Part shown: positions 444 to 13,873 of the stretch, one piece after another
Layout: every line of letters starts with the position of its first letter
Numbering within the stretch: the stretch's first letter is position 1
IMG/VR virus record: IMGVR_UViG_2778261504_000003
Coordinates: 1-24,148 of that record
Direction: 5' to 3' (one strand)
Source of the DNA: a virus
Taxonomy: Duplodnaviria; Heunggongvirae; Uroviricota; Caudoviricetes
DNA length: 24,148 nucleotides
Notes under the pieces: model-generated
Database searches by the model: none
Told to the model about the DNA's origin: nothing
What the model saw: the letters and a program-made list of their open reading frames with translations, nothing else
Translations under genes and position numbers: made by a program

Positions 444-635
444 TTAAAGACCTGCCGGGATTTCGTTATTATCCTGGTGAATAACTTTATCGACCGGGTA
501 ACAGTTACCGGGAATTTTCTGTTCGGTTGCTGCAGTCACACACTCCTGCATTGTCCTGTGAACACTGACTGCAATATCAACTGGCTCTCCGGAAACAAGA
601 AAAACTGTCAGAACAAGTGCAAATGCTGTATTCAT
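444..635 (-). CDS. ydfD: YdfD-like small membrane/lysis protein (63 aa)
   Basis: Internal Met of track ORF 444..689 gives MNTAFALVLTVFLVSGEPVDIAVSVHRTMQECVTAATEQKIPGNCYPVDKVIHQDNNEIPAGL, matching my memory of E. coli Qin YdfD. Its ATG overlaps the dicB stop (ATGA), implying translational coupling. Confidence 0.75.
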   Translation of the reverse strand: MNTAFALVLTVFLVSGEPVDIAVSVHRTMQECVTAATEQKIPGNCYPVDKVIHQDNNEIPAGL

Positions 636-820
636 TGCCAGCATCCTTTTTGTATCGGACGTAAACGGGCCAGCATTGAAAGAATGCATATTTTATTTAA
701 TAGCTCCCGTTCGTGTTTTCTCTTGTTAATGGCATCTTCAGTAAATACAGGGTTACTGATAGTGACACCAATTTCAAAACAACCTTCAGACGTATTAACG
801 TTTGGTAATAACGTTTCCAT
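632..820 (-). CDS. dicB: Cell division inhibitor DicB (62 aa)
   Basis: Internal Met of track ORF 632..925 gives METLLPNVNTSEGCFEIGVTISNPVFTEDAINKRKHERELLNKICILSMLARLRPIQKGCWQ, near-identical to remembered E. coli K-12 DicB. Lies about 170 nt downstream of DicF as in the K-12 dicB operon. Confidence 0.85.
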   Translation of the reverse strand: METLLPNVNTSEGCFEIGVTISNPVFTEDAINKRKHERELLNKICILSMLARLRPIQKGCWQ

Positions 821-989
821 TATCGCGTCCTCAACAATGAATTTTGTGATGCGGTGCCTGGTGCCTCCAGGTGACGTTAACCAGTTAACAATTAACGCCG
901 GATACAGAGAATCCACCCATAACACTGTTTTTGGTTTTAACTGTTCCGCGTGCGCTCAGCCGCATTCACCGCATCACAAAATTCACTTT

Positions 990-1047
990 AAAAAGGGCGG
1001 CAGAGCAGTCACGGAGTAAAACTGATACCGCCAAACGTCACCAGAAA
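990..1047 (-). ncRNA. dicF: DicF small regulatory RNA (ftsZ-targeting sRNA of the dicB operon) with its 3' stem-loop and U-tail
   Basis: Reverse complement of 990-1047 reads TTTCTGGTGACGTTTGGCGGTATCAGTTTTACTCCGTGACTGCTCTGCCGCCCTTTTT, which matches the DicF sequence as I remember it. It ends in a GGCGG...CCGCC stem followed by a U-run. Position between ydfC and dicB is as in Qin. Confidence 0.85.
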
Positions 1048-1380
1048 ATTGATAACAGAGGGCGTTGCAGCGGGGTTGTCACTTAAGCGTATGGTCAACC
1101 TGACAACCCGGTGTCCTCAACGGGGAAGGAATAACCCCGCCATACTTACCGCCGCGCCATTTCGCGGAGTGCCACAACCGGAAGCGCACGGTCGACGAAA
1201 ATTTAACGACAGGCTATCTATGAACCAACAACCTCGCCGTGCGCTTTCGCGTTATGCTCTGACTTTTCAGAGAAATATCCTTTCAGTAAACTGTCAGTGC
1301 CGGATGTTCACCCGTGTCCGGCGCACGCACTCCATTTCACCCGTGGAGAACTCCTTAATTACCAACCCTCAGGAGGGTGA

Positions 1381-1614
1381 ATGTTAAAATCAACTCTTAT
1401 TGCTAAATGCCTTTATCAAAATCGCATGGTAAGCAGCATTTCAATAGGCGAGTCTGCAGTTAAAAGTATTTTCGAAGAGTACTTTCCCGGGCATGATTTT
1501 AATAAATGGAATACCAAATTACCGCCAGCAGTTTCAACGCGTATTCTGAAAGCAACTGAAAGAGCAAGTACAATTCGCGTTAACTATTTCATTAAAGATT
1601 TGTGGGATCTTTGA
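1381..1614 (+). CDS. Hypothetical protein (77 aa), antisense to the early-left operon, inside the AT-rich insert
   Basis: ATG at 1381 directly preceded by AGGAGG (1371-1376). A 77-codon ORF in AT-rich DNA is unlikely by chance. Its 3' end overlaps the 3' end of the convergent 135-aa ORF by 23 nt. No recognisable family. Confidence 0.4.
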   Translation: MLKSTLIAKCLYQNRMVSSISIGESAVKSIFEEYFPGHDFNKWNTKLPPAVSTRILKATERASTIRVNYFIKDLWDL

Positions 1615-1999
1615 TATCCACAGAGCCTAAAGTATGTGCATATGGATGTGCTATTGTGCGCCCTCGCAGATTTGCATCATTTTCTAAATTCACTGAACGA
1701 AACAGGGCATCAACAAGGCTCTGTACAATGCAAAGGCAATCGAAGACTGTCGCCGTTTCTGTTTTGATTGATGAAAGAACATGGCCATTCACGCAAACAG
1801 AAATTACCCGTTTATTAACATCGCTTTCCTGCTTTTGATTATCAGAACCATATAGCCCAGAAAAAGCATTGCGCACATTACGAACCATATTATCGATGGT
1901 TTCTTTTTTGGTGTATGCCGGGTCAATTTTCACCAGACTATCACCGAGAGTCGTTGCAGCAATTGTCTGGATTTCTTTTGGTAAATCTTTAAATTCCAT
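1592..1999 (-). CDS. Hypothetical protein (135 aa) inserted in the dicB operon between ydfC and DicF
   Basis: Minus-strand ATG at 1999 with GAGG 6 nt upstream, 22 nt after the ydfC stop and in operon orientation. AT-rich relative to flanks. No recognisable family. Confidence 0.5.
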   Translation of the reverse strand: MEFKDLPKEIQTIAATTLGDSLVKIDPAYTKKETIDNMVRNVRNAFSGLYGSDNQKQESDVNKRVISVCVNGHVLSSIKTETATVFDCLCIVQSLVDALFRSVNLENDANLRGRTIAHPYAHTLGSVDIKDPTNL

Positions 2000-2021
2000 T
2001 ATTAGCCTCGTTGGTTAGCTA

Positions 2022-2240
2022 TTAACGCGGGTATGTAATCATTCTGGCAATGCTTAATGCCGCTGCTTTTTCCAGCCTGGTGATATCCTGCTCCAGAGCG
2101 GACAGATTTTCAGCCTGCTTAGCCCTGGCTTCATTGGCCCATTTCAGATCCTGCGCTGCATTAATTTTCTGGCGCATCCACTCATAAAGTTCATCATCGG
2201 TATAGTCTGGCGCGATGATGACGGGTTCTCGTTTCTGCAT
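2022..2240 (-). CDS. ydfC: YdfC-like protein (72 aa)
   Basis: MQKREPVIIAPDYTDDELYEWMRQKINAAQDLKWANEARAKQAENLSALEQDITRLEKAAALSIARMITYPR matches remembered Qin YdfC in sequence and length; position after ydfB. Confidence 0.8.
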   Translation of the reverse strand: MQKREPVIIAPDYTDDELYEWMRQKINAAQDLKWANEARAKQAENLSALEQDITRLEKAAALSIARMITYPR

Positions 2241-2269
2241 ACTGATTCCTCGCGGTGCTGTTTCGCTTA

Positions 2270-2398
2270 TCAGCCGTTAGATTTTGCCGAACTGGAAAGC
2301 GCCTGTTTAAATTCGTTGAAGCTGTGAGCTTCTTCGCCTTCGGCAAGGCCTTCGAAGTATTCTTCGTAAGCCTTTTCCATGATTGTGTCAAAATCCAT
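2270..2398 (-). CDS. ydfB: YdfB-like small acidic protein (42 aa)
   Basis: Hand translation of the minus strand: MDFDTIMEKAYEEYFEGLAEGEEAHSFNEFKQALSSSAKSNG. Starts immediately after the ydfA stop. Below the size cut-off of the ORF track. Confidence 0.7.
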   Translation of the reverse strand: MDFDTIMEKAYEEYFEGLAEGEEAHSFNEFKQALSSSAKSNG

Positions 2399-2399
2399 A

Positions 2400-2555
2400 T
2401 CACTCACCTGAGTTTCTTTCCAGCCAGCGACGGGCACCATTTTCGGTTTTAAACGTTTTGCTTTTGGTATACGTCATTGCGGTGAAGGTGCCGTCCTGGT
2501 TTGGAAACACGCCGTACACCAGAGATTCGTTGTTGCCAAGATCGATAGTATCCAT
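2400..2555 (-). CDS. ydfA: YdfA-like protein (DUF1391-type, 51 aa)
   Basis: Hand translation of the minus strand: MDTIDLGNNESLVYGVFPNQDGTFTAMTYTKSKTFKTENGARRWLERNSGE. First gene after the repressor terminator, as in Qin. Confidence 0.7.
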   Translation of the reverse strand: MDTIDLGNNESLVYGVFPNQDGTFTAMTYTKSKTFKTENGARRWLERNSGE

Positions 2556-2633
2556 GCTGACCTCATTTCCCCTTAACGCCGGGGTAGCGGAACTTTAGCC
2601 TGACAACGATGCGGTTCGTTGTTGATGGAATGA

Positions 2634-2662
2634 ATGGTAAAACTATTGGTTTTATTGGTCAA
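2634..2662 (-). promoter_or_regulatory. Candidate sigma70 promoter of the ydfABC-dicF-dicB operon with overlapping operator-like repeats
   Basis: On the minus strand: TTGACC, 17-nt spacer, TACCAT. Overlaps the repeats CTATTGG / TCAATAG (2643-2665), which resemble the AACTATAGG half-sites in the repressor/cro intergenic region. Confidence 0.35.
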
Positions 2663-2695
2663 TAGACAATGGAACATAAAGTTTTATTTGTGAGG

Positions 2696-2725
2696 ATAAA
2701 AAAAGCGCCAGGGAGGCGCTTTTTT
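2696..2725. terminator. Bidirectional intrinsic terminator between the repressor gene and the dicB-operon promoter
   Basis: A-run, GCGCC, AGGGA loop, GGCGC, then TTTTTT. Reads as hairpin plus U-tract on both strands. Confidence 0.6.
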
Positions 2726-2733
2726 CATGTAAC

Positions 2734-3144
2734 TTATTGTTTTTGAATATCATTGATTATGTCGTATACATCGTTTTTTAGAAGATCCATTTCATGAAGA
2801 ATGCTTTTTGTGTGCATGATTAGTCTCAGCTTTTCCGTTTCTGGCAACTGATTAAAAAGGGACAATAGCGCCTTTTCTTTGTCGTCAAGCTGGATTAGTG
2901 GTGGTGCATCTTCTTCCTTTGAATGTTCATTTAGCGGCATAAAAAACCAATGTTCTGGTTTTCCTGTTACCGCGGCAAGTCTTTTTAATCTTTCTCCGCT
3001 GGCAATGGTTTCTCCTGTTGCCCACTTACGCACAGCGGTATGGGACAGCATAACCTTTTTAGCCAGACCGGCTAACGACCAGCCATGTTCGCTCATTGCT
3101 TGCCGAACTCTCTCAGCAAATATTGGATGGTTTATTTTACTCAT
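2734..3144 (-). CDS. Prophage repressor, DicA-like (XRE-family HTH, 136 aa)
   Basis: N-terminal HTH (GWSLAGLAKKVMLSHTAVRKWATGE) and C-terminal LLSLFNQLPETEKLRL motif resembling DicA (LLELFNALPESEQ). Divergent from the Cro-like gene, upstream of ydfA as dicA is in Qin. Confidence 0.85.
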   Translation of the reverse strand: MSKINHPIFAERVRQAMSEHGWSLAGLAKKVMLSHTAVRKWATGETIASGERLKRLAAVTGKPEHWFFMPLNEHSKEEDAPPLIQLDDKEKALLSLFNQLPETEKLRLIMHTKSILHEMDLLKNDVYDIINDIQKQ

Positions 3145-3229
3145 TTTTTAAGTATACAACCAAAGGTTTCACCAATCAGCAAAACTATAGGTTTTGTGTT
3201 GAAACTTATAGTTTTTGATGGTAGCGTAG
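3145..3229. promoter_or_regulatory. Divergent promoter/operator region between the repressor and Cro-like genes
   Basis: AT-rich 85-nt intergenic region with an imperfect inverted repeat AAACTATAGG ... CTTATAGTTT (3182-3215) and GTTTCA / TGAAAC half-sites. Confidence 0.5.
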
Positions 3230-3256
3230 GTGAAATTAATAGTACTGGTGGAAAGT

Positions 3257-3532
3257 ATGAGTAATCAAATTCACGATAAGATCTCTAAAAAAATGTCGAA
3301 AACTGACATTGGCAAACACTTTGGCATTAGCTCCCAGGCCGTAGGCAAGTGGTTCATTAAAGGCAAGGTTCCTGCTGAACGCGTGTCGTCACTCTGTGCA
3401 TTACTGAATTGGGAAATTACTCCCCACGAACTTCGCCCTGACATTTATCCCAACCCAACAGATGGACTACCTTGTGAAAATAAGTGTATGTCGAATGAAT
3501 CACTGGCGGTGAACAATGATATTCACTCCTGA
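3257..3532 (+). CDS. Cro/DicC-like HTH regulator
   Basis: HTH near the N-terminus (KTDIGKHFGISSQAVGKWF), divergent from the repressor. Start is ambiguous: GTG 3230, ATG 3257 or ATG 3293. Confidence 0.7.
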   Translation: MSNQIHDKISKKMSKTDIGKHFGISSQAVGKWFIKGKVPAERVSSLCALLNWEITPHELRPDIYPNPTDGLPCENKCMSNESLAVNNDIHS

Positions 3533-4037
3533 GCAGGCTCGCGAGGCTCTGGATGCCTGGGTATGCCGACCAGGAATGACGCAGGAGCAGGCGACGATAT
3601 TAATCACGGAAGCATTCTGGGCTCTGAAAGAACGCCCGAACATCGATGTTCATCGCGTCACGTTTGATGATGGCGCGGTTGATCAACGGGCGCTGGGCGT
3701 TAACAGGGTGAAGATATTCGAACGCTGGAAAGCTATCGACACCAGGGATAAGCGTGAAAAATTCACGGCGCTGATTCCGGCAATTATGGAGGCTATCCGG
3801 ATCAGCGATTTCAGGTTGTATTGTGAAATTACTGACGGAAAAAGCATTACGTACATGATCGCCGGGTTAAACAAAGAATATGGCGATGTGGTGGAGTCCG
3901 GGCTGCTTTTTGCGGATCCAGCTGTTGTGGAACGTGAGACTGACGAGCTTATAGAAAAAGCCATTGCTTTCAAGCGTGCGTATCGTCAGCAATATCAACA
4001 AAAAGTCGGATGGAATTATGAGTCTTCTTTTTGCTGA
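3516..4037 (+). CDS. YdaT-like protein (CII-position regulator of Rac/Qin-type phages), 173 aa
   Basis: Immediately follows and overlaps the Cro-like gene. Contains REKFTALIPAIMEAIR, which resembles the YdaT family as I remember it. Family assignment tentative. Confidence 0.5.
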   Translation: MIFTPEQAREALDAWVCRPGMTQEQATILITEAFWALKERPNIDVHRVTFDDGAVDQRALGVNRVKIFERWKAIDTRDKREKFTALIPAIMEAIRISDFRLYCEITDGKSITYMIAGLNKEYGDVVESGLLFADPAVVERETDELIEKAIAFKRAYRQQYQQKVGWNYESSFC

Positions 4038-8759: not shown

Positions 8760-9077
8760 TTAACAGATTGACTGAATTCCGTTTTTCTCAACCACAGAAA
8801 GCAAACGAAGGGCAGGGCCACCAGGGCGCTTTATTCCCCTTTCCCAGTCTGAAATGAGGTTTTTACTGACATTAAGATATCTGGCGAAAACAGGTTGAGA
8901 CAGATGCTCGCGCTCGCGAAGTGCCCGGATTCTTTCTGGCGACATTGTTGGCGCTGGTTGCAGACAGAGTTCATCAAACTCTCTCATAGTTTGTTTTGTA
9001 ACTGCGCCAATATCCTGAAGTGACTCCATCATTTCATGTACGGATGCAAGTGCATCACTGCGGTAATTTTTACTCAT
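8760..9077 (-). CDS. Type II antitoxin, XRE/HigA-like HTH DNA-binding protein (105 aa)
   Basis: C-terminal HTH SPERIRALREREHLSQPVFARYLNVSKNLISDWERGIKRP. Overlaps the 3' end of the upstream toxin gene by 8 nt. Confidence 0.75.
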   Translation of the reverse strand: MSKNYRSDALASVHEMMESLQDIGAVTKQTMREFDELCLQPAPTMSPERIRALREREHLSQPVFARYLNVSKNLISDWERGIKRPGGPALRLLSVVEKNGIQSIC

Positions 9078-9441
9078 TGGGTACCTCCGTAAACTGACCT
9101 TGCAGGATCAATTGCGCCAGTTGTTCATCAGTAAGATTGAGAACGTGATGCGCAGCTTTTCGAAATGCGTTTTCCTCGATGGCTGTAATATTTTCTCTCT
9201 CATTCTTTGCGTACGCATAGATGAAAAAAGCCTTTTCTGCGACGCGGTAAAAAATTATTGTCCTATAACCGCCTGATTTACCGCCACCTCTTCGGGCTAA
9301 TCGCTGCTTAATGACACCACTACCCAAATCTGCGGATATGAGTCCCTTATCAGCTAGTTCCACGACTTCTCGCAGAGCTTTATCGGAAATCCGATTTTTT
9401 CGTGCGAAGCGTTCAAACCAGGCATTTTTGAAAATGCGCAT
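9070..9441 (-). CDS. Type II toxin, RelE/ParE superfamily (HigB-like gene order, toxin first)
   Basis: Internal Met of track ORF 9070..9585 gives MRIFKNAWFERFARKNRISDKALREVVELADKGLISADLGSGVIKQRLARRGGGKSGGYRTIIFYRVAEKAFFIYAYAKNERENI..., typical of RelE/ParE-fold killer proteins paired with an HTH antidote. Alternative start 4 codons upstream. Confidence 0.75.
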   Translation of the reverse strand: MRIFKNAWFERFARKNRISDKALREVVELADKGLISADLGSGVIKQRLARRGGGKSGGYRTIIFYRVAEKAFFIYAYAKNERENITAIEENAFRKAAHHVLNLTDEQLAQLILQGQFTEVPNE

Positions 9442-9682
9442 GTTTGGTTCCATACCGTTGTGTAATACATAGTGTGACACAATTAAATAGGGCAGGCAAT
9501 ATCCATACAGAGGACTTGCTAAGGAATGGCGGCTCAAAAAACACTCTATTTTTAGAGTATACAAATGACAGAAAGAAAAAGTCATTGTTTTTTCTCATGA
9601 AATACGCATTTTTTGGGAGTGAAATCGTTATTTGTAGTGGATATATTCCAGCCATGTTTTATCCAATACCAGAGGTTTTACA

Positions 9683-9895
9683 ATGCAGAAGTTGATCGCC
9701 GCGAATTGTAAGTACGCAGTTATTCGTTGTGACGATATGTCGGTTGTAGCTGAAATGGATTGTTTTCCGGATGGAGCCAGAGCTGTATGGCATCGAAAAG
9801 GGAACATGCTTAGGGTAAGAGCTTTGCGGGCTGATGAGCGAATTGTATCGAAAACAGTGCTCAGGGAGATCGTGTATCAGTTTATGCGGACTTGA
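9683..9895 (+). CDS. Hypothetical protein (70 aa)
   Basis: ATG with AGAGG about 8 nt upstream; first plus-strand gene after the TA promoter region. Overlapped by an antisense ORF (9659..9925), so one of the two is spurious. Confidence 0.35.
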   Translation: MQKLIAANCKYAVIRCDDMSVVAEMDCFPDGARAVWHRKGNMLRVRALRADERIVSKTVLREIVYQFMRT

Positions 9896-9980: not shown

Positions 9981-10259
9981 ATGGCGCACAAGACCAAATT
10001 ACACAATTCTGATAATTCAGCCGTCTTTGCCAGCAGGCACGGGCGGCGTTCTCACACATTCAAATATGACTGGTTCCAGCATGACCCCTGCACTGAAGAA
10101 CAGGCCGAATGGCTGATTCAGAACTACCGCAGACGTGGGTATGAGTTTGAGAAAGACCTCAGCCTTGACCGTCGCCACTGGATAATCTCCGTCAGGCTCC
10201 CTTATTCCGAACGTCCGCCGCGTCCGTCCCGCACATTCCAGCAACGCATCTGGAGGTAA
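9981..10259 (+). CDS. Hypothetical basic protein immediately upstream of DUF968
   Basis: Internal ATG of track ORF 9960..10259. Arg-rich; its last codons carry the GGAGG used by the downstream gene. No recognisable family. Confidence 0.4.
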   Translation: MAHKTKLHNSDNSAVFASRHGRRSHTFKYDWFQHDPCTEEQAEWLIQNYRRRGYEFEKDLSLDRRHWIISVRLPYSERPPRPSRTFQQRIWR

Positions 10260-10260
10260 C

Positions 10261-11319
10261 GTGCGGGTATTACTTCGACCTGTTCCGGTACCGGAACTCG
10301 GGCTGGTGGTCCTTAAGCCTGGTCGTGAATCCATGCAGGTATTTCATAACCCTCGAGTGCTGGTGGAGCCGGAACCGAAAAGCATGCGCGGTCTGCCGTC
10401 CGGGGTCGTTCCTGCCGTTCGCCAGCCGGTGGCGGAGGATAAATCATTACTGCCATTTTTCAGCGACGAACGAGTGATTCGTGCTGCTGGTGGCGCTGGC
10501 GCATTGTCTGACTGGTTACTGCGCCATGTTAAATCCTGCCAGTGGCCACACGGCGATTATCACCACAGTGAAACCGTCATTCACCGTTATGGTACCGGCG
10601 CAATGGTGTTGTGCTGGCACTGCGACAACCAGCTGCGTGACCAGACATCCGAATCACTCGAGCAACTTGCTCATCAAAACCTGTCAGCATGGATGATTGA
10701 CGTCATCGGTCACGCAATAAGCGGTACGCAGGAGCGTGAATTATCTCTGGCTGAATTATCCTGGTGGGCTGTCCGCAATCAGGTGGCGGACGCGCTACCG
10801 GAAGCGGTATTACGTCGTTCGCTGGGGTTGCGTGCGGAAAAAATCCGCTCAATGTACCGTGAAAGCGACATCGTACCGGGAGAGCAGACCGCTACCAGCA
10901 TACTGAAGCAGCGCACAAAAAATCTTGCGCCGTTGCTTCACACCCACCAGCCACAGAACCCAGCACAGGAAAAGACGGTGGTCAGTATTGCCGTTGATCC
11001 GGAGTCACCGGCTCAGTATATCCAGCGCCAGAAACCACAACGGGAAGAGATGCCTGTATACACGCGCTGGGTAAAAACGCAGAAATGCATGACGTGCGGT
11101 AATCAGGCAGATGATCCGCATCACATCATTGGTCATGGACTGGGAGGGATGGGAACAAAGGCGGATGATTTGTTTGTTATTCCGCTGTGCCGTAAATGTC
11201 ATAACGAACTGCACGCCGGGGTAAAAGATTTTGAAGAAAAACACGGCAGCCAGCTGTTGTTGCTGATTCGTTTTTTAATGCACGCGAGAAATTCGGGTGT
11301 CCTGAAGTGGAAAGCATGA
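10261..11319 (+). CDS. DUF968-family protein (YdfU-like) with C-terminal HNH-like Cys/His motif
   Basis: GTG 10261 preceded by GGAGG with a 4-nt spacer. C-terminus CMTCGN...HHIIGHGLGGMGTKADDLFVIPLCRKCHNELH. Position upstream of rusA and Q as in Qin. Confidence 0.75.
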   Translation: MRVLLRPVPVPELGLVVLKPGRESMQVFHNPRVLVEPEPKSMRGLPSGVVPAVRQPVAEDKSLLPFFSDERVIRAAGGAGALSDWLLRHVKSCQWPHGDYHHSETVIHRYGTGAMVLCWHCDNQLRDQTSESLEQLAHQNLSAWMIDVIGHAISGTQERELSLAELSWWAVRNQVADALPEAVLRRSLGLRAEKIRSMYRESDIVPGEQTATSILKQRTKNLAPLLHTHQPQNPAQEKTVVSIAVDPESPAQYIQRQKPQREEMPVYTRWVKTQKCMTCGNQADDPHHIIGHGLGGMGTKADDLFVIPLCRKCHNELHAGVKDFEEKHGSQLLLLIRFLMHARNSGVLKWKA

Positions 11320-11685
11320 ATGACTGAACGCATAGAATTTGTTTTGCCTTACCCGCCGACGGTGAACACCTACTGGCGACGTCGTGGCAGCACATATTTT
11401 GTATCAAAAGCCGGTGAGCGTTATCGCCGGGATGTGGCACTTATTGTTCGCCAGCAGCGGCTGAAATTAAACCTGTCCGGAAGGCTGGCAATAAAGATTA
11501 TTGCAGAGCCACCGGATAAGCGCCGTCGGGACCTGGACAATATTCTGAAAGCACCGCTGGATGCGCTGACGCATGCGGGACTGCTTATCGACGACGAGCA
11601 GTTTGATGAAATCAATATTGTGCGCGGTTTGCCTGTTCCTGGTGGGCGGCTGGGCGTGAAGATTTACAAAATTGAAAGTGAGTGA
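11320..11685 (+). CDS. rusA: Holliday junction resolvase RusA
   Basis: MTERIEFVLPYPPTVNTYWRRRG...DKRRRDLDNILKAPLDALTHAGLLIDDEQ... matches RusA, including the catalytic RRRDLDN motif and size (121 aa). ATG overlaps the upstream stop. Confidence 0.9.
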   Translation: MTERIEFVLPYPPTVNTYWRRRGSTYFVSKAGERYRRDVALIVRQQRLKLNLSGRLAIKIIAEPPDKRRRDLDNILKAPLDALTHAGLLIDDEQFDEINIVRGLPVPGGRLGVKIYKIESE

Positions 11686-11693
11686 GCGTAAAT

Positions 11694-12248
11694 ATGATAT
11701 ACCCGGAAATTACAGGCAAAAGCGGTGAGCATTTACGCCTGAAAACGCTGGAAAGTGTCTGGCTCCAGGGGAAACTGCGTATGTGGGGGCGTTGGTCGTA
11801 TATTGGCGGCGGTAAGACGGGAAATATGTTCAACCAATTACTGACCTCTAAAAAGCTGACGAAAACGGCAATTAACGAGGCGCTCCGGAGGATGAAAAAA
11901 GCGGGTCTGGACAAACCTGAACTTGAGGCTTTTTTGCGGGATATGATCAACGGCAATCAAAAAAGCTGGCTGGCACATTGTACCGATTCAGAGGCGTTAA
12001 TAATCGACAGGGTTATTGGTGAAGCCCTGGCAGGTTATCCCGGGCTGCTCAATGTCCTGAGTCAGCGTTATGTGGGGCGGGGGATGACTAAGCGCAAAAT
12101 GGCTGAACTGCTGAATGATGCACACCCGGAATGGAGTTTAAGAACCTGTGAAAGACGCATTGAGCATTGGCTAAAGGTGGCAGAATTTATTTTGTACAAA
12201 CCAATGGTTATGGCTTTTGGTATAGAGAAAAAAGTTATTGCTTTTTGA
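11694..12248 (+). CDS. Late-gene antiterminator Q-like protein
   Basis: Position between rusA and the terminator/late region; size about 184 aa. Start at ATG 11694 preferred over GTG 11682. Family assigned by position and general similarity only. Confidence 0.7.
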   Translation: MIYPEITGKSGEHLRLKTLESVWLQGKLRMWGRWSYIGGGKTGNMFNQLLTSKKLTKTAINEALRRMKKAGLDKPELEAFLRDMINGNQKSWLAHCTDSEALIIDRVIGEALAGYPGLLNVLSQRYVGRGMTKRKMAELLNDAHPEWSLRTCERRIEHWLKVAEFILYKPMVMAFGIEKKVIAF

Positions 12249-12820: not shown

Positions 12821-13873
12821 ATGGTTAATACTGTAAAAATATCCAGTTGTGAGTTAATCAACGCTGATTGCCTGGAATTTATCCAGACCTTACCGGAAAA
12901 CTCTGTCGATCTGATAGTCACAGACCCGCCATACTTTAAAGTGAAGCCCGAGGGCTGGGATAACCAGTGGAAGGGCGACGATGATTACCTGAAATGGCTG
13001 GATCAGTGTCTGGCGCAATTCTGGCGGGTACTGAAACCTGCCGGAAGTCTCTACCTGTTCTGTGGTCATCGCCTGGCATCTGACACCGAAATCATGATGC
13101 GTGAACGCTTTAATGTGCTGAATCACATTATCTGGGCGAAACCGTCCGGGCGCTGGAACGGGTGTAACAAGGAAAGCCTGCGGGCGTATTTCCCGGCAAC
13201 AGAACGCATTCTGTTTGCTGAACATTATCAGGGACCATATCAGCCCAAAAGTGACGGCTATGCGGCAAAAGAAAGGGAACTCAAACAGCACATAATGGCA
13301 CCGCTGATATCGTATTTCAGGGATGCTCGTGCCGAACTGGGTATAACGGCAAAACAAATTGCCGAAGCCACAGGTAAGAAAAATATGGTTTCCCACTGGT
13401 TTGGTGCCAGTCAGTGGCAGTTGCCGAATGAGGCTGACTATCGGAAGTTACAGGCACTGTTTTCCCGTATAGCGGCAGAGAAGTTTCAGGAACAACAACT
13501 GGAACAACCACACCACCAGCTGGTGGCATCTTATGATTCACTGAATCGCAAATATTCTGAATTGCTGGATGAGTTTAAATCTCTCCGGCGCTATTTCTCC
13601 GTATCAGTCTCCGTGCCTTATACCGATGTCTGGACGCATAAGCCCGTTCAGTTCTACCCGGGTAAACATCCGTGCGAGAAACCGGCGGATATGCTCCGGC
13701 AAATAATCAATGCCAGTAGTCGACCTGGTGATCTGGTTGCTGATTTCTTTATGGGATCCGGTTCCACAATAAAAGCAGCAATGGCGCTGGGGCGTCGGGC
13801 GTTAGGTGTTGAACTTGAGTCAGAGCGGTTTAATCAGACGGCGAAAGAGGTAAGTGAACTGGTGGGGAAATAA
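12821..13873 (+). CDS. DNA methyltransferase, N6-adenine/N4-cytosine amino-MTase family (motif IV before motif I)
   Basis: DPPY motif near the N-terminus (LIVTDPPYF) and AdoMet-binding FxGxG motif near the C-terminus (DFFMGSGSTIKAA). Located between Q and the lysis cassette, where lambdoid phages commonly carry a methylase. Confidence 0.85.
   Translation: MVNTVKISSCELINADCLEFIQTLPENSVDLIVTDPPYFKVKPEGWDNQWKGDDDYLKWLDQCLAQFWRVLKPAGSLYLFCGHRLASDTEIMMRERFNVLNHIIWAKPSGRWNGCNKESLRAYFPATERILFAEHYQGPYQPKSDGYAAKERELKQHIMAPLISYFRDARAELGITAKQIAEATGKKNMVSHWFGASQWQLPNEADYRKLQALFSRIAAEKFQEQQLEQPHHQLVASYDSLNRKYSELLDEFKSLRRYFSVSVSVPYTDVWTHKPVQFYPGKHPCEKPADMLRQIINASSRPGDLVADFFMGSGSTIKAAMALGRRALGVELESERFNQTAKEVSELVGK

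Follow-up and report, generated by a model that had tools for sequence, protein, structure and literature searches.

A predicted GtgR-type immunity region with AAC-N5-GTT operators at the repressor/cro and ydfA-operon promoters of a prophage

Does one and the same repressor govern both its own promoter region and the operon leading to DicF and DicB in this prophage and, if so, through which operators? The original prediction held that a short motif, AACTATWGG, recurs as an inverted half-site between the divergent repressor and cro-type genes and again at the promoter of the ydfA operon, and that a DicA-like repressor acts on both. Here, we examine this proposal in the window, i.e. the whole 24,148-nucleotide stretch of DNA under analysis, and in related prophages. 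Our answer, to which we assign a probability of roughly 0.8, is that positions 2634-3229 form the immunity region of a lambdoid prophage in which a GtgR-type repressor is predicted to act on AAC-N5-GTT operators at both control regions. Judged by its sequence, the prophage follows the usual plan of lambda and Qin, except that its repressor is of the Gifsy-2 type.

The repeated box and its distribution in the window

The repeated motif is genuine and not a product of chance, although the 9-mer by itself is only marginal. Namely, AACTATWGG has two exact copies in the 24-kb window (2641-2649 and 3183-3191) where 0.28 would be expected, and 3 of 100 shuffles reach two. The longer sequence AAAACTATWGGTTTT is found exactly at 2639-2653 and 3181-3195 and, inverted and with two mismatches, at 3201-3215; with up to three mismatches allowed, it gives 10 matches against 1.48 expected, a count that none of 100 shuffles attains. 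The inverted pair 3181-3194/3202-3215 (I4) is 93% complementary. In this sense, the recurrence at both regions and the inverted repeats at 3182-3215 stand as originally described, while the division into half-sites does not: the unit is a whole pseudo-palindrome of 11-15 bp. In particular, the operator box is 15 bp long, AAAAC-N5-GTTTT, with an invariant AAC-N5-GTT core and an A/T-rich centre, and it encloses the 9-mer.

The core occurs 13 times in the window, and six of these occurrences (at 2641, 2673, 2731, 3158, 3183 and 3203) fall inside 573 bp; the clustered six have A/T-rich centres, which most of the other core matches in the window do not. Scored against shuffles that preserve local dinucleotide composition, the intergenic region 3145-3256 holds three cores where 0.118 are expected (P = 2e-4), and 2556-2733 holds two where 0.088 are expected (P = 0.003). 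As for the individual sites, the box at 3158-3168 had been overlooked. A further site had been placed at 2641-2665: the box at 2641 is upheld, but its supposed inverted partner at 2657-2665 (CAATAG), though present, coincides with the -35 hexamer TTGACC and is unconserved, relatives having TTTACA there, and we place the second operator at 2673-2683 instead. Another match, at 12199 (AACCAATGGTT), lies in coding DNA near the end of ORF 11682-12248 and is probably due to chance.

Table 1. Positions of the genes, predicted operators, promoters and hairpins discussed in the text.
Feature	Position	Strand	Basis or comment
dicB	632-820	-	DicB translation
DicF RNA	995-1046	-	Rfam DicF, 76.7 bits
Opposite-strand ORF, 77 aa	1381-1614		phrog_10348 match; inside operon
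Extra ORF, 135 aa	1592-1999	-	between ydfC and DicF
ydfC	2022-2240	-	
ydfB	2270-2398	-	
ydfA	2400-2555	-	
Cargo operon	632-2555	-	Pfam DUF1391; RefSeq annotation of a 99.1% identical locus
Left-operon 5' leader	2569-2622	-	hairpin 2603-2622 and second hairpin 2569-2584, before ydfA ribosome-binding site
Early-left promoter (PL/dicBp-equivalent)	2634-2662	-	-35 TTGACC 2662-2657, 17-nt spacer, -10 TACCAT 2639-2634
OL1, candidate operator AAAACTATTGGTTTT	2639-2653, core 2641-2651		exact 15-mer and strict core
OL2, candidate operator GGAACATAAAGTTTT	2671-2685, core 2673-2683		strict core match
Hairpin and T-run (AAAAAAGCGCC...GGCGCTTTTTT)	2696-2728	-	inverted repeat I5, 93% complementary
Possible extra box AACTTATTGTT	2731-2741		strict core match over repressor stop codon; status uncertain
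Repressor gene, 136 aa	2734-3144	-	HTH_3 domain (Pfam)
Candidate PRM-like promoter	3151-3179	-	predicted; weak -35 CTGATT 3179-3174, 17 nt, -10 TATACT 3156-3151
OR3-like candidate operator ACAACCAAAGGTTTC	3156-3170, core 3158-3168		strict core
OR2-like candidate operator AAAACTATAGGTTTT	3181-3195, core 3183-3193		exact 15-mer
Candidate PR	3199-3227	+	predicted; -35 TTGAAA 3199-3204, 17 nt, -10 TAGCGT 3222-3227
OR1-like candidate operator GAAACTTATAGTTTT	3201-3215, core 3203-3213		inverted copy with 2 mismatches and strict core
Cro-position gene, YdaS family, 91 aa	3257-3532	+	Pfam YdaS_toxin
YdaT/CII-like gene	3516-4037		after YdaS-family gene; Pfam YdaT_toxin

Promoters, candidate operators and the repressor

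Between the repressor gene and the divergent cro-type gene lie 112 bp, and the three cores in this interval overlap promoter-like hexamers (Table 1). Within the promoter of the repressor itself, the OR3-like box occupies the spacer, at a distance of 1 nt from the -10; it is the best-conserved block of the intergenic alignment, and almost all of 70 relatives have it at the same offset, -24 relative to the repressor ATG. The OR2-like box is centred at about -44 from the ATG/predicted start, with 3 nt between it and the PRM -35 further downstream, and it is conserved in relatives at offset -49. The OR1-like box covers part of the cro-side promoter, overlapping both its -35 and its spacer. The window lacks 4 bp between OR1 and OR2, so that the offset of OR1 is -69 here as opposed to -73 in relatives. 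The OR1-OR2 spacing of 20 bp, compared with 23-24 bp in relatives, would put cooperatively binding repressors in a different helical phase, and this counts against our model. At the positions aligned with PR, relatives have TTGGAA-17-TATTCT or TAATCT. The PRM-like -10 is followed by 6 nt and then by the repressor ATG at 3144, so that a leaderless repressor mRNA is predicted; relatives keep TAAAAT, 6 nt and ATG, without a Shine-Dalgarno sequence. The YdaS- and YdaT-family genes match phrog_35 and phrog_163, and no similarity was found between the cro-position protein and DicC.

The early-left promoter upstream of ydfA, TTGACC-17-TACCAT, has cores of this operator type on either side of its -35, at 2641 and 2673. 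This is the sole promoter-like match of the promoter scan in 2300-3500; the cro-side and repressor promoters score only 8/12, below the threshold of the scan, and are therefore not called. OL1 lies inside the early-left promoter, filling its spacer and touching the -10, whereas OL2 lies 10 nt upstream of the -35, at a centre-to-centre distance of 32 bp from OL1. What is more, the left promoter and the repressor's own promoter have their box geometry in common, the box being placed between the hexamers, 5 nt from the -35 and 1 nt from the -10. Relatives also carry a box at the OL1 position, 23-24 nt before the leader hairpin, and a conserved second one 54-58 nt before it. In K-12 Qin, the -35 is aligned with a TTGACC upstream of ydfA, and the position aligned to OL1 reads TTAGTCATGGCTAA. 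Transcription is predicted to start at about 2626-2627. Relatives have a hairpin plus T-run at the same place as that of 2696-2728, which would terminate the repressor transcript and insulate the left promoter. The box over the repressor stop codon falls within a 27-nt direct repeat shared with the OR1 region (2720-2746 and 3192-3218, 81% identical) and was not found in relatives with repressors 76-80% identical. The leader of the left operon is conserved in 49 distinct relatives, heteroimmune ones included, and K-12 Qin keeps the hairpin with a different stem sequence. Folding of the leader alignment gives one hairpin with a single compensatory change, i.e. weak covariation, and a comparison of the leader with Rfam gave no match at E <= 1.

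Which protein would read these boxes? The neighbouring repressor has LSHTAVRKWATG as its recognition helix, and the only Pfam domains found in it are HTH_3 and HTH_31, with no S24 peptidase or RecA-cleavage domain. Its N-terminus is conserved in 28 homologs, which favours the start at 3144 over RefSeq's Met17, and homologs are 133-142 aa long. Its closest characterised relative is the Gifsy-2/LT2 Gifsy-1 repressor, GtgR, with 63.2% identity over residues 1-135. In position, the repressor gene matches that of DicA, with a divergent cro-type gene on one side and the ydfA-DicF-dicB operon on the other. The epithet "DicA-like" is nevertheless apt only at the level of the superfamily, not in the sense of orthology. 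Namely, identity to K-12 DicA is 30% over 100 residues, the match to NCBIfam NF007257 (DicA) reaches 47.6 bits (E = 1.4e-12) where the curated cutoff is 101, and Oc-type TTAG-N6-CTAA sites number zero upstream and downstream of the window's repressor gene, compared with 2+1 in K-12. By length, N-terminal HTH_3 domain and lack of a peptidase, the repressor fits the short non-cleavable lambdoid group of GtgR, GfoR, DicA and RacR, a grouping of Gifsy-type short repressors made previously (PMC3121763). A search of solved structures gave only weak matches, to the N-terminal domain of P22 C2, and no complex with DNA near enough to allow contacts to be modelled. A core of 11 bp is rather little for a dimer of helix-turn-helix proteins to read, so the true contacts may not coincide with it.

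Following the placement of the boxes, we infer a switch of the following kind. The 136-aa repressor most likely binds the 15-bp pseudo-palindromes, presumably as a dimer, at five predicted sites, three of them between the repressor and cro-type genes and the other two at the early-left promoter. With OL1 and OL2, the latter three helical turns upstream, both occupied, RNA polymerase would be excluded, and ydfA-ydfB-ydfC, the extra ORF, DicF and DicB, presumed to be co-transcribed, would be silenced. Occupancy of OR1 and OR2, which overlap the cro-side promoter, would shut off the YdaS/YdaT/replication arm. OR2 also adjoins the weak -35 of the repressor promoter and may activate it, in the way that lambda CI activates its own promoter from OR2, while OR3, in the spacer of that promoter, would provide for negative autoregulation. 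It is probable that the Cro-position protein acts at these sites as well.

Induction would proceed via an antirepressor rather than via RecA-mediated cleavage. In Gifsy phages, a small LexA-controlled antirepressor is encoded outside the immunity region, next to dinI, and both operator binding by GtgR and its release by the antirepressor GftA were seen by gel shift (PMC3121763). In the window, tblastn found no homologs of GftA, DinI or Rem, and there is no strict LexA box; the best relaxed match, at 12829, has four mismatches and lies in the late region, and we rejected it as an SOS link. ORF 9683-9895 (70 aa, phrog_1813) occupies the position of rem in Qin, with weak similarity to Rem, and by that position is a candidate antirepressor only; an unrelated or trans-acting antirepressor may serve.

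Conservation in relatives and competing explanations

A search of IMG/VR with a repressor alignment yielded 80 loci and a search of genome contigs with a single protein yielded 5; 13 diverse relatives were aligned for footprinting, and 70 distinct regulatory regions were used for offsets. In the 13-relative alignment, conservation is concentrated in islands, namely the AAC and GTT columns, the hexamers of the promoters and the T-run of the terminator, and the DNA between them diverges. The motif search across related prophages that the original prediction had proposed speaks in its favour: in 70 distinct loci, the boxes are kept at -73/-49/-24 relative to the repressor ATG and, on the left side, at about -56/-24 relative to the leader hairpin, fixed offsets that partly reflect common descent, the relatives being homologous. 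Box density is 17.9 per kb in the regulatory regions and 0.27 per kb elsewhere in the loci (66-fold). The repressors of this AAC-N5-GTT clade are non-cleavable, are 56-80% identical to one another and come from prophages of Salmonella (Gifsy-2), Citrobacter, Enterobacter, Klebsiella, Yersinia and E. coli. Subgroups of the clade differ in flanking bases only, the flanks being mostly AAAAC...GTTTT here as against T-N-(G/A)-AAC in the Gifsy-2 group; one subgroup (LSHTAVQNWAKG) has a single strict core upstream, its other boxes being AAG-N5-GTT.

The box type changes together with the repressor. Namely, repressors with an LSHT-type helix are accompanied by AAC-N5-GTT boxes, K-12 DicA by TTAG-N6-CTAA in both regulatory regions, including Oc, and repressors with a VSPQAVQQ-type helix by ACAAG-N5-CTTGT. 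In other words, three helix classes go with three box types at equivalent positions, and the one cross-match, a stray AAC-N5-GTT in locus L005, lies downstream, in the leader hairpin (AACGCATTGTT), and not at an operator position. Because the box type follows the recognition helix at kept positions, an operator role is supported; together with position and conservation, this swap argues for one repressor acting on its own region and on the ydfA-operon promoter. Homology to K-12 Qin DNA starts at about 2593-2607, only downstream of the promoter and operators, so that the immunity module has been exchanged as a whole relative to K-12 Qin. In L012 and L013, another first gene follows the identical module of repressor, operators and leader. 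The recombination joint is thus located just downstream of the promoter relative to K-12 Qin and just after the leader relative to L012 and L013.

Would our conclusions be different if the operators controlled the ydfA promoter while transcription were interrupted or re-initiated in 1381-1999, with DicF and DicB levels set elsewhere? The ydfC-DicF interval does carry about 600-700 bp of extra DNA relative to K-12, with the 135-aa ORF and the opposite-strand 77-aa ORF (phrog_10348), the latter making read-through to DicF and DicB an assumption, and there are promoter-like matches inside 400-2300. However, these matches number five, little more than the 3.1 that shuffles give on average, and a search of the minus strand from 2300 to 400 found nothing resembling a terminator. 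In K-12, a polycistronic transcript starting at dicBp is processed to yield DicF, and no internal promoter was found there (PMC10448788). We therefore regard such an uncoupling as unlikely.

It is highly improbable, in our view, that the 136-aa repressor is not the main protein to bind the boxes and that this part falls to the YdaS-family Cro-position protein or the YdaT/CII-like one. Lambdoid Cro proteins share the operators of CI, and such sharing here would not contradict our main model. Rac YdaT does footprint three operators in the racR-ydaS intergenic region, but the known YdaT boxes are a different palindrome, ATGATT-N6-AATCAA (PMC11879457), and the window's own palindrome at 3509-3526 is likewise unlike AAC-N5-GTT; YdaT/CII boxes were accordingly discarded as the source of the repeats. 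What is more, the box type tracks the repressor helix across groups, and boxes also lie downstream of the repressor gene in phages such as Gifsy-2, whose Cro and CII analogs differ by annotation description from the YdaS/YdaT-family genes of the window. Finally, one can ask whether the repeats arose by chance or merely reflect the A/T-rich composition of promoters, as UP-like elements and bent DNA do, without any sequence-specific regulator being involved. The low G+C content of the repressor/cro intergenic region (32%) and the marginal score of the 9-mer would suit this explanation, but it is hardly credible given the core excess over local dinucleotide shuffles, the concentration of boxes at fixed offsets in relatives, and the heteroimmune relatives, where another palindrome stands at the same positions, something that composition cannot explain. 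We thus retain the reading in which one GtgR-type repressor would act at both control regions.

Meaning and likeness to known systems

This reading supplies an explicit operator definition, AAAAC-N5-GTTTT with five predicted sites, for a widespread GtgR-related repressor clade whose operators, in the literature searched, are defined only as a gel-shift fragment. DicF and DicB, a toxic cargo known above all from the defective Qin prophage, would also come under another immunity specificity here, in a complete-looking prophage. The architecture is otherwise that expected of a lambdoid switch and should hold no surprise for a phage specialist. Rather unlikely, in our estimate, is the further idea that repressors of co-resident prophages might partly cross-occupy each other's AAC-N5-GTT operators. 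If true, the Gifsy-2-type repressor of one prophage could silence another's DicF and DicB, and its loss could unleash them, adding crosstalk at the level of operators to that already described for Gifsy phages at the level of antirepressors.

With K-12 Qin, the window shares the order of cro-type gene, divergent short helix-turn-helix repressor, terminator hairpin, TTGACC promoter and ydfA-ydfB-ydfC-DicF-dicB, as well as the use of one palindromic box type in the intergenic region and the left-promoter spacer. A one-repressor architecture has been described for Qin, where DicA represses dicBp 22-fold (PMC10448788), and Oc, TTGTTAGTCATAACTAACAA, is a verified DicA target (PMC3441716). The two differ in the repressor (30% identical), in the operator (TTAG-N6-CTAA in Qin) and in the gene at the cro position (DicC in Qin, a YdaS-family gene here), and the window, with lysis, terminase and head genes, belongs to a prophage that looks far more complete than Qin. 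With Gifsy-2 and LT2 Gifsy-1, it shares the leader hairpin and the AAC-N5-GTT boxes, which lie both in the intergenic region and, downstream of the repressor gene, on either side of the -35, and the fragment gel-shifted by GtgR (PMC3121763; L003, 1321-1587) contains the homologous boxes. The left operon of Gifsy-2, in contrast, carries recombination genes in place of ydfABC-DicF-dicB, and its Cro and CII analogs are set apart from the window's YdaS and YdaT by their annotation descriptions. The racR-ydaS-ydaT region of Rac resembles the right arm, with YdaS- and YdaT-family proteins and a palindrome over the ydaT start codon (Rac YdaT box: PMC11879457), although the palindrome is ATGATT-N6-AATCAA in Rac and GTGAAC-N6-ATTCAC at 3509-3526 here.

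Lambda, 434 and P22 have the same divergent repressor and cro genes, with three operators over PR and PRM, one of them abutting a weak PRM -35, and operators of the same type at PL. They differ in that the window's repressor is without the S24 peptidase/RecA-cleavage domain, that two clear left operators are seen here instead of three, and that the 11-bp core is shorter. The lambda cI mRNA is leaderless, as is predicted for the repressor mRNA of the window, and the 434 operators, ACAA-N6-TTGT, have short conserved arms around an A/T-rich centre, much like the box described here.

The shared box

According to the original prediction, the 9-mer AACTATWGG is the half-site of an operator shared by the divergent repressor/cro promoter region and the ydfA promoter. 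A motif is indeed common to both places. The 9-mer is found in the window at 2641 and 3183 only, a count reached in 3 of 100 shuffles and marginal by itself. The longer repeat AAAACTATWGGTTTT, however, is present in exact copies at 2639-2653 and 3181-3195 and in an inverted copy with two mismatches at 3201-3215, while allowing up to three mismatches gives 10 matches against 1.48 expected, which none of 100 shuffles attains. The part common to all copies is AAC-N5-GTT with an A/T-rich centre, found in strict form at 2641, 2673, 2731, 3158, 3183 and 3203, such that 6 of the 13 copies in the window fall inside 573 bp. Relative to shuffles preserving local dinucleotide composition, the intergenic region carries three copies where 0.118 are expected (P = 2e-4), and 2556-2733 carries two where 0.088 are expected (P = 0.003). 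The motif is not a half-site, but rather a complete pseudo-palindromic site. What is more, the inverted partner proposed at 2657-2665 coincides with the -35 hexamer, the actual second site of the ydfA promoter being 2673-2683, and a third intergenic site, at 3158-3168, adds to those predicted.

The sixth box, 2731-2741, overlaps the repressor stop codon and lies within a 27-nt direct repeat (2720-2746), 81% identical to the OR1 region at 3192-3218; it is missing in relatives with 76-80% identical repressors, and may be either a remote extra operator or due to chance. Another match, AACCAATGGTT, with an A/T-rich centre, at 12199-12209 near the end of ORF 11682-12248, is probably due to chance.

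Recognition helix and conservation in relatives

The strongest argument, on sequence grounds, for regarding these boxes as operators is that the type of box goes with the recognition helix of the repressor, while its position is retained. Namely, the helix LSHT(A/S)V(R/Q)(K/N)W (window and the Salmonella prophage Gifsy-2) accompanies AAC-N5-GTT in the intergenic region and at the left promoter. The helix ISHVSVSQW of K-12 DicA accompanies TTAG-N6-CTAA, found twice in the intergenic region, where one of the sites, Oc, has been verified in vivo as a target of DicA (PMC3441716), and once upstream of ydfA, in the spacer that follows TTGACC, exactly at the OL1 position of the window. Finally, VSPQAVQQW, as in the related prophage loci L005 and L008, accompanies ACAAG-N5-CTTGT (CTTGTA half-sites) at equivalent positions. 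Motifs of the other helix groups were sought in the operator regions and none was found, except for one downstream AAC-N5-GTT in L005, located in the leader hairpin and away from operator positions. Base composition or generic promoter elements, as an alternative source of the boxes, cannot account for helix-linked box types.

The motif search across related prophages covered Gifsy-2, Gifsy-1, a Klebsiella phage, five genome loci and 80 IMG/VR loci, and is in line with the prediction. Nearly all loci with an LSHT-type helix have three strict cores in the 140 bp before the repressor ATG and two in the 230 bp after its stop. Across 70 distinct regulatory regions, the offsets from the ATG are fixed at -73/-49/-24 (window, -69/-49/-24), and the left boxes lie about -56/-24 from the conserved leader hairpin; core density is 17.9 per kb upstream versus 0.27 per kb in the remaining parts of the loci. 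When 13 diverse members are aligned, islands of conservation appear at the AAC and GTT columns, at the hexamers of the promoters and at the T-run of the terminator, while the N5 centres and the DNA between boxes vary. Homologous boxes also lie inside the fragment (L003 1321-1587) amplified by the primers of the published gel shift with GtgR, the Gifsy-2 repressor (PMC3121763). Flanking bases differ between subgroups of the AAC-N5-GTT clade (AAAAC...GTTTT in the window's group, T-N-(G/A)-AAC in the Gifsy-2 group, GAAAC in QN-helix groups), and so a functional site of 15-17 bp is probable, with outer positions that may set immunity specificity, as far as small and related samples indicate.

Promoters and gene layout

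The left promoter is the only one called by the promoter scan within 2300-3500, and its two putative operators are 32 bp apart, centre to centre. The repressor and cro-side promoters, at 8/12 each, are not called; they are proposed from sequence and conservation in relatives. In particular, the minus strand at the repressor start reads GTTG-TATACT-TAAAAA-ATG, i.e. a good -10 and, six nt further on, the ATG; there is no Shine-Dalgarno sequence, and a leaderless repressor mRNA is thus predicted. The -35 (CTGATT) is weak. The OR1-OR2 spacing (3181-3215) is 20 bp in the window's immunity type versus 23-24 bp in relatives, since 4 bp are missing, and this would alter the helical phasing between the two.

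Features of the immunity region, the cargo operon and other elements
Feature	Position	Strand	Description
dicB	632-820	-	intact
DicF RNA	995-1046	-	Rfam, 76.7 bits
Opposite-strand ORF	1381-1614	+	77 aa, phrog_10348; inside operon
Extra ORF	1592-1999	-	135 aa, phrog_1363
ydfA	2400-2555	-	ydfB, ydfC next in order
Leader hairpin 2	2569-2584	-	CCCC-GGCGTTAA-GGGG, before ydfA ribosome-binding site
Leader hairpin 1	2603-2622	-	ACAACGA/TCGTTGT, then GTTCCGC
Left promoter-like site	TTGACC 2662-2657, TACCAT 2639-2634	-	17-nt spacer; promoter scan
OL1, putative operator	2639-2653		fills left-promoter spacer, reaches into -10
OL2, putative operator	2671-2685		10 nt upstream of left-promoter -35
Hairpin and T-run	2696-2728	-	downstream of repressor gene
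Repressor gene	2734-3144	-	136 aa, one HTH_3 domain
OR3, putative operator	3158-3168 (core)		fills spacer of repressor promoter
OR2, putative operator	3181-3195		ends 3 nt upstream of repressor-promoter -35
Candidate cro-side promoter	TTGAAA 3199-3204, TAGCGT 3222-3227	+	17-nt spacer; best for cro-position gene
OR1, putative operator	3201-3215		overlaps cro-side -35 and spacer
YdaS-family gene	3257-3532	+	Cro position
YdaT/CII-like gene	3516-4037		after YdaS-family gene
105-aa HTH protein (phrog_2104) and 171-aa protein (phrog_5869)	8760-9585	-	overlapping ORFs

No terminator-like site was found on the operon strand between the left promoter and dicB. Between ydfC and DicF, 1381-1999 is additional to K-12 Qin and holds the 135-aa and 77-aa ORFs, which overlap at 1592-1614. 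The 5' leader (2569-2622, minus-strand RNA) is conserved in 49 distinct relatives, heteroimmune ones among them, and K-12 Qin has it with another stem sequence; it has no match in Rfam and a single compensatory pair, and may be nutL-like or serve in processing or in stabilising the mRNA. A palindrome, GTGAAC-AATGAT-ATTCAC (3509-3526), whose spacer contains the start codon of the ydaT-like gene (3516), is laid out like the YdaT-box of Rac, ATGATT-N6-AATCAA (PMC11879457), but differs from it in sequence. The pair at 8760-9585, amid plus-strand early genes, resembles by arrangement a HigB/HigA-type toxin-antitoxin or moron cassette.

The repressor and the proposed switch

The prediction of a DicA-like repressor is supported in substance, in that a single repressor for its own region and the dicB-operon promoter fits the boxes at both, their conserved offsets and the helix-linked box type. 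The repressor is, however, no DicA ortholog (NF007257, 47.6 bits versus a cutoff of 101; 30% identity to K-12 DicA), nor is the cro-position protein related to DicC. Among characterised proteins, the repressor is closest to GtgR of Gifsy-2 (also LT2 Gifsy-1), with 63% identity over the full length. The GtgR family, with which DicA and RacR have been put into the same broad group, is short, not cleaved upon induction and inactivated by small antirepressors (PMC3121763); the window's repressor likewise has no cleavage domain. At E <= 1e-10, a large protein collection yields 136 homologs; most have 133-142 aa, and they come from Citrobacter, Enterobacter, Klebsiella, Salmonella, Yersinia and E. 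coli. At a 99.1% identical locus (JB2), the RefSeq start of the repressor is Met17, giving 120 aa and a truncated first helix; residues 1-16 are conserved among homologs, which supports the 136-aa form starting at 3144.

Among 5426 complete E. coli genomes, the ydfABC part has matches in about 4150, the window's immunity region in only five. Homology to K-12 Qin ends at about 2593-2607, just downstream of promoter and operators, while loci L012 and L013 share identical repressor, terminator, OL2, -35, OL1, -10 and leader and differ in the first gene. As expected of an immunity module, the operators thus stay with the repressor rather than the cargo.

Most likely, this is a lambda-type switch, in which repressor on OL1 and OL2 would occlude the left promoter, so that ydfABC, the extra ORF, DicF and DicB would not be expressed in the lysogen; on OR1 and OR2 it would turn off the cro/YdaT/replication arm, while OR2 may activate the repressor's own leaderless transcript and OR3 may repress it. 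In Qin, DicA represses dicBp 22-fold and DicF is processed from the dicBp transcript (PMC10448788); by analogy, the window's left promoter would be repressed and DicF processed from its transcript, with putative read-through to DicF/dicB past the opposite-strand ORF 1381-1614.

As for induction, neither GftA, DinI or Rem homologs nor a strict LexA box were found in the window; the best relaxed LexA-like site, TACTGTAAAAATATCCAGTT (12829-12848, at the start of ORF 12821-13873), is probably due to chance. A 70-aa ORF of unknown function (9683-9895, +; phrog_1813) occupies rem's Qin position, directly upstream of homologs (9981-11304) of the two genes following rem. It weakly resembles Rem (E = 0.006), shows no similarity to GftA and is, by position only, a candidate antirepressor.

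What is gained is a computed operator definition for a widespread repressor clade, together with a map of the module joint. The arrangement itself is not surprising: the region is a heteroimmune counterpart, of Gifsy-2 type, to the layout known from Qin and lambda.
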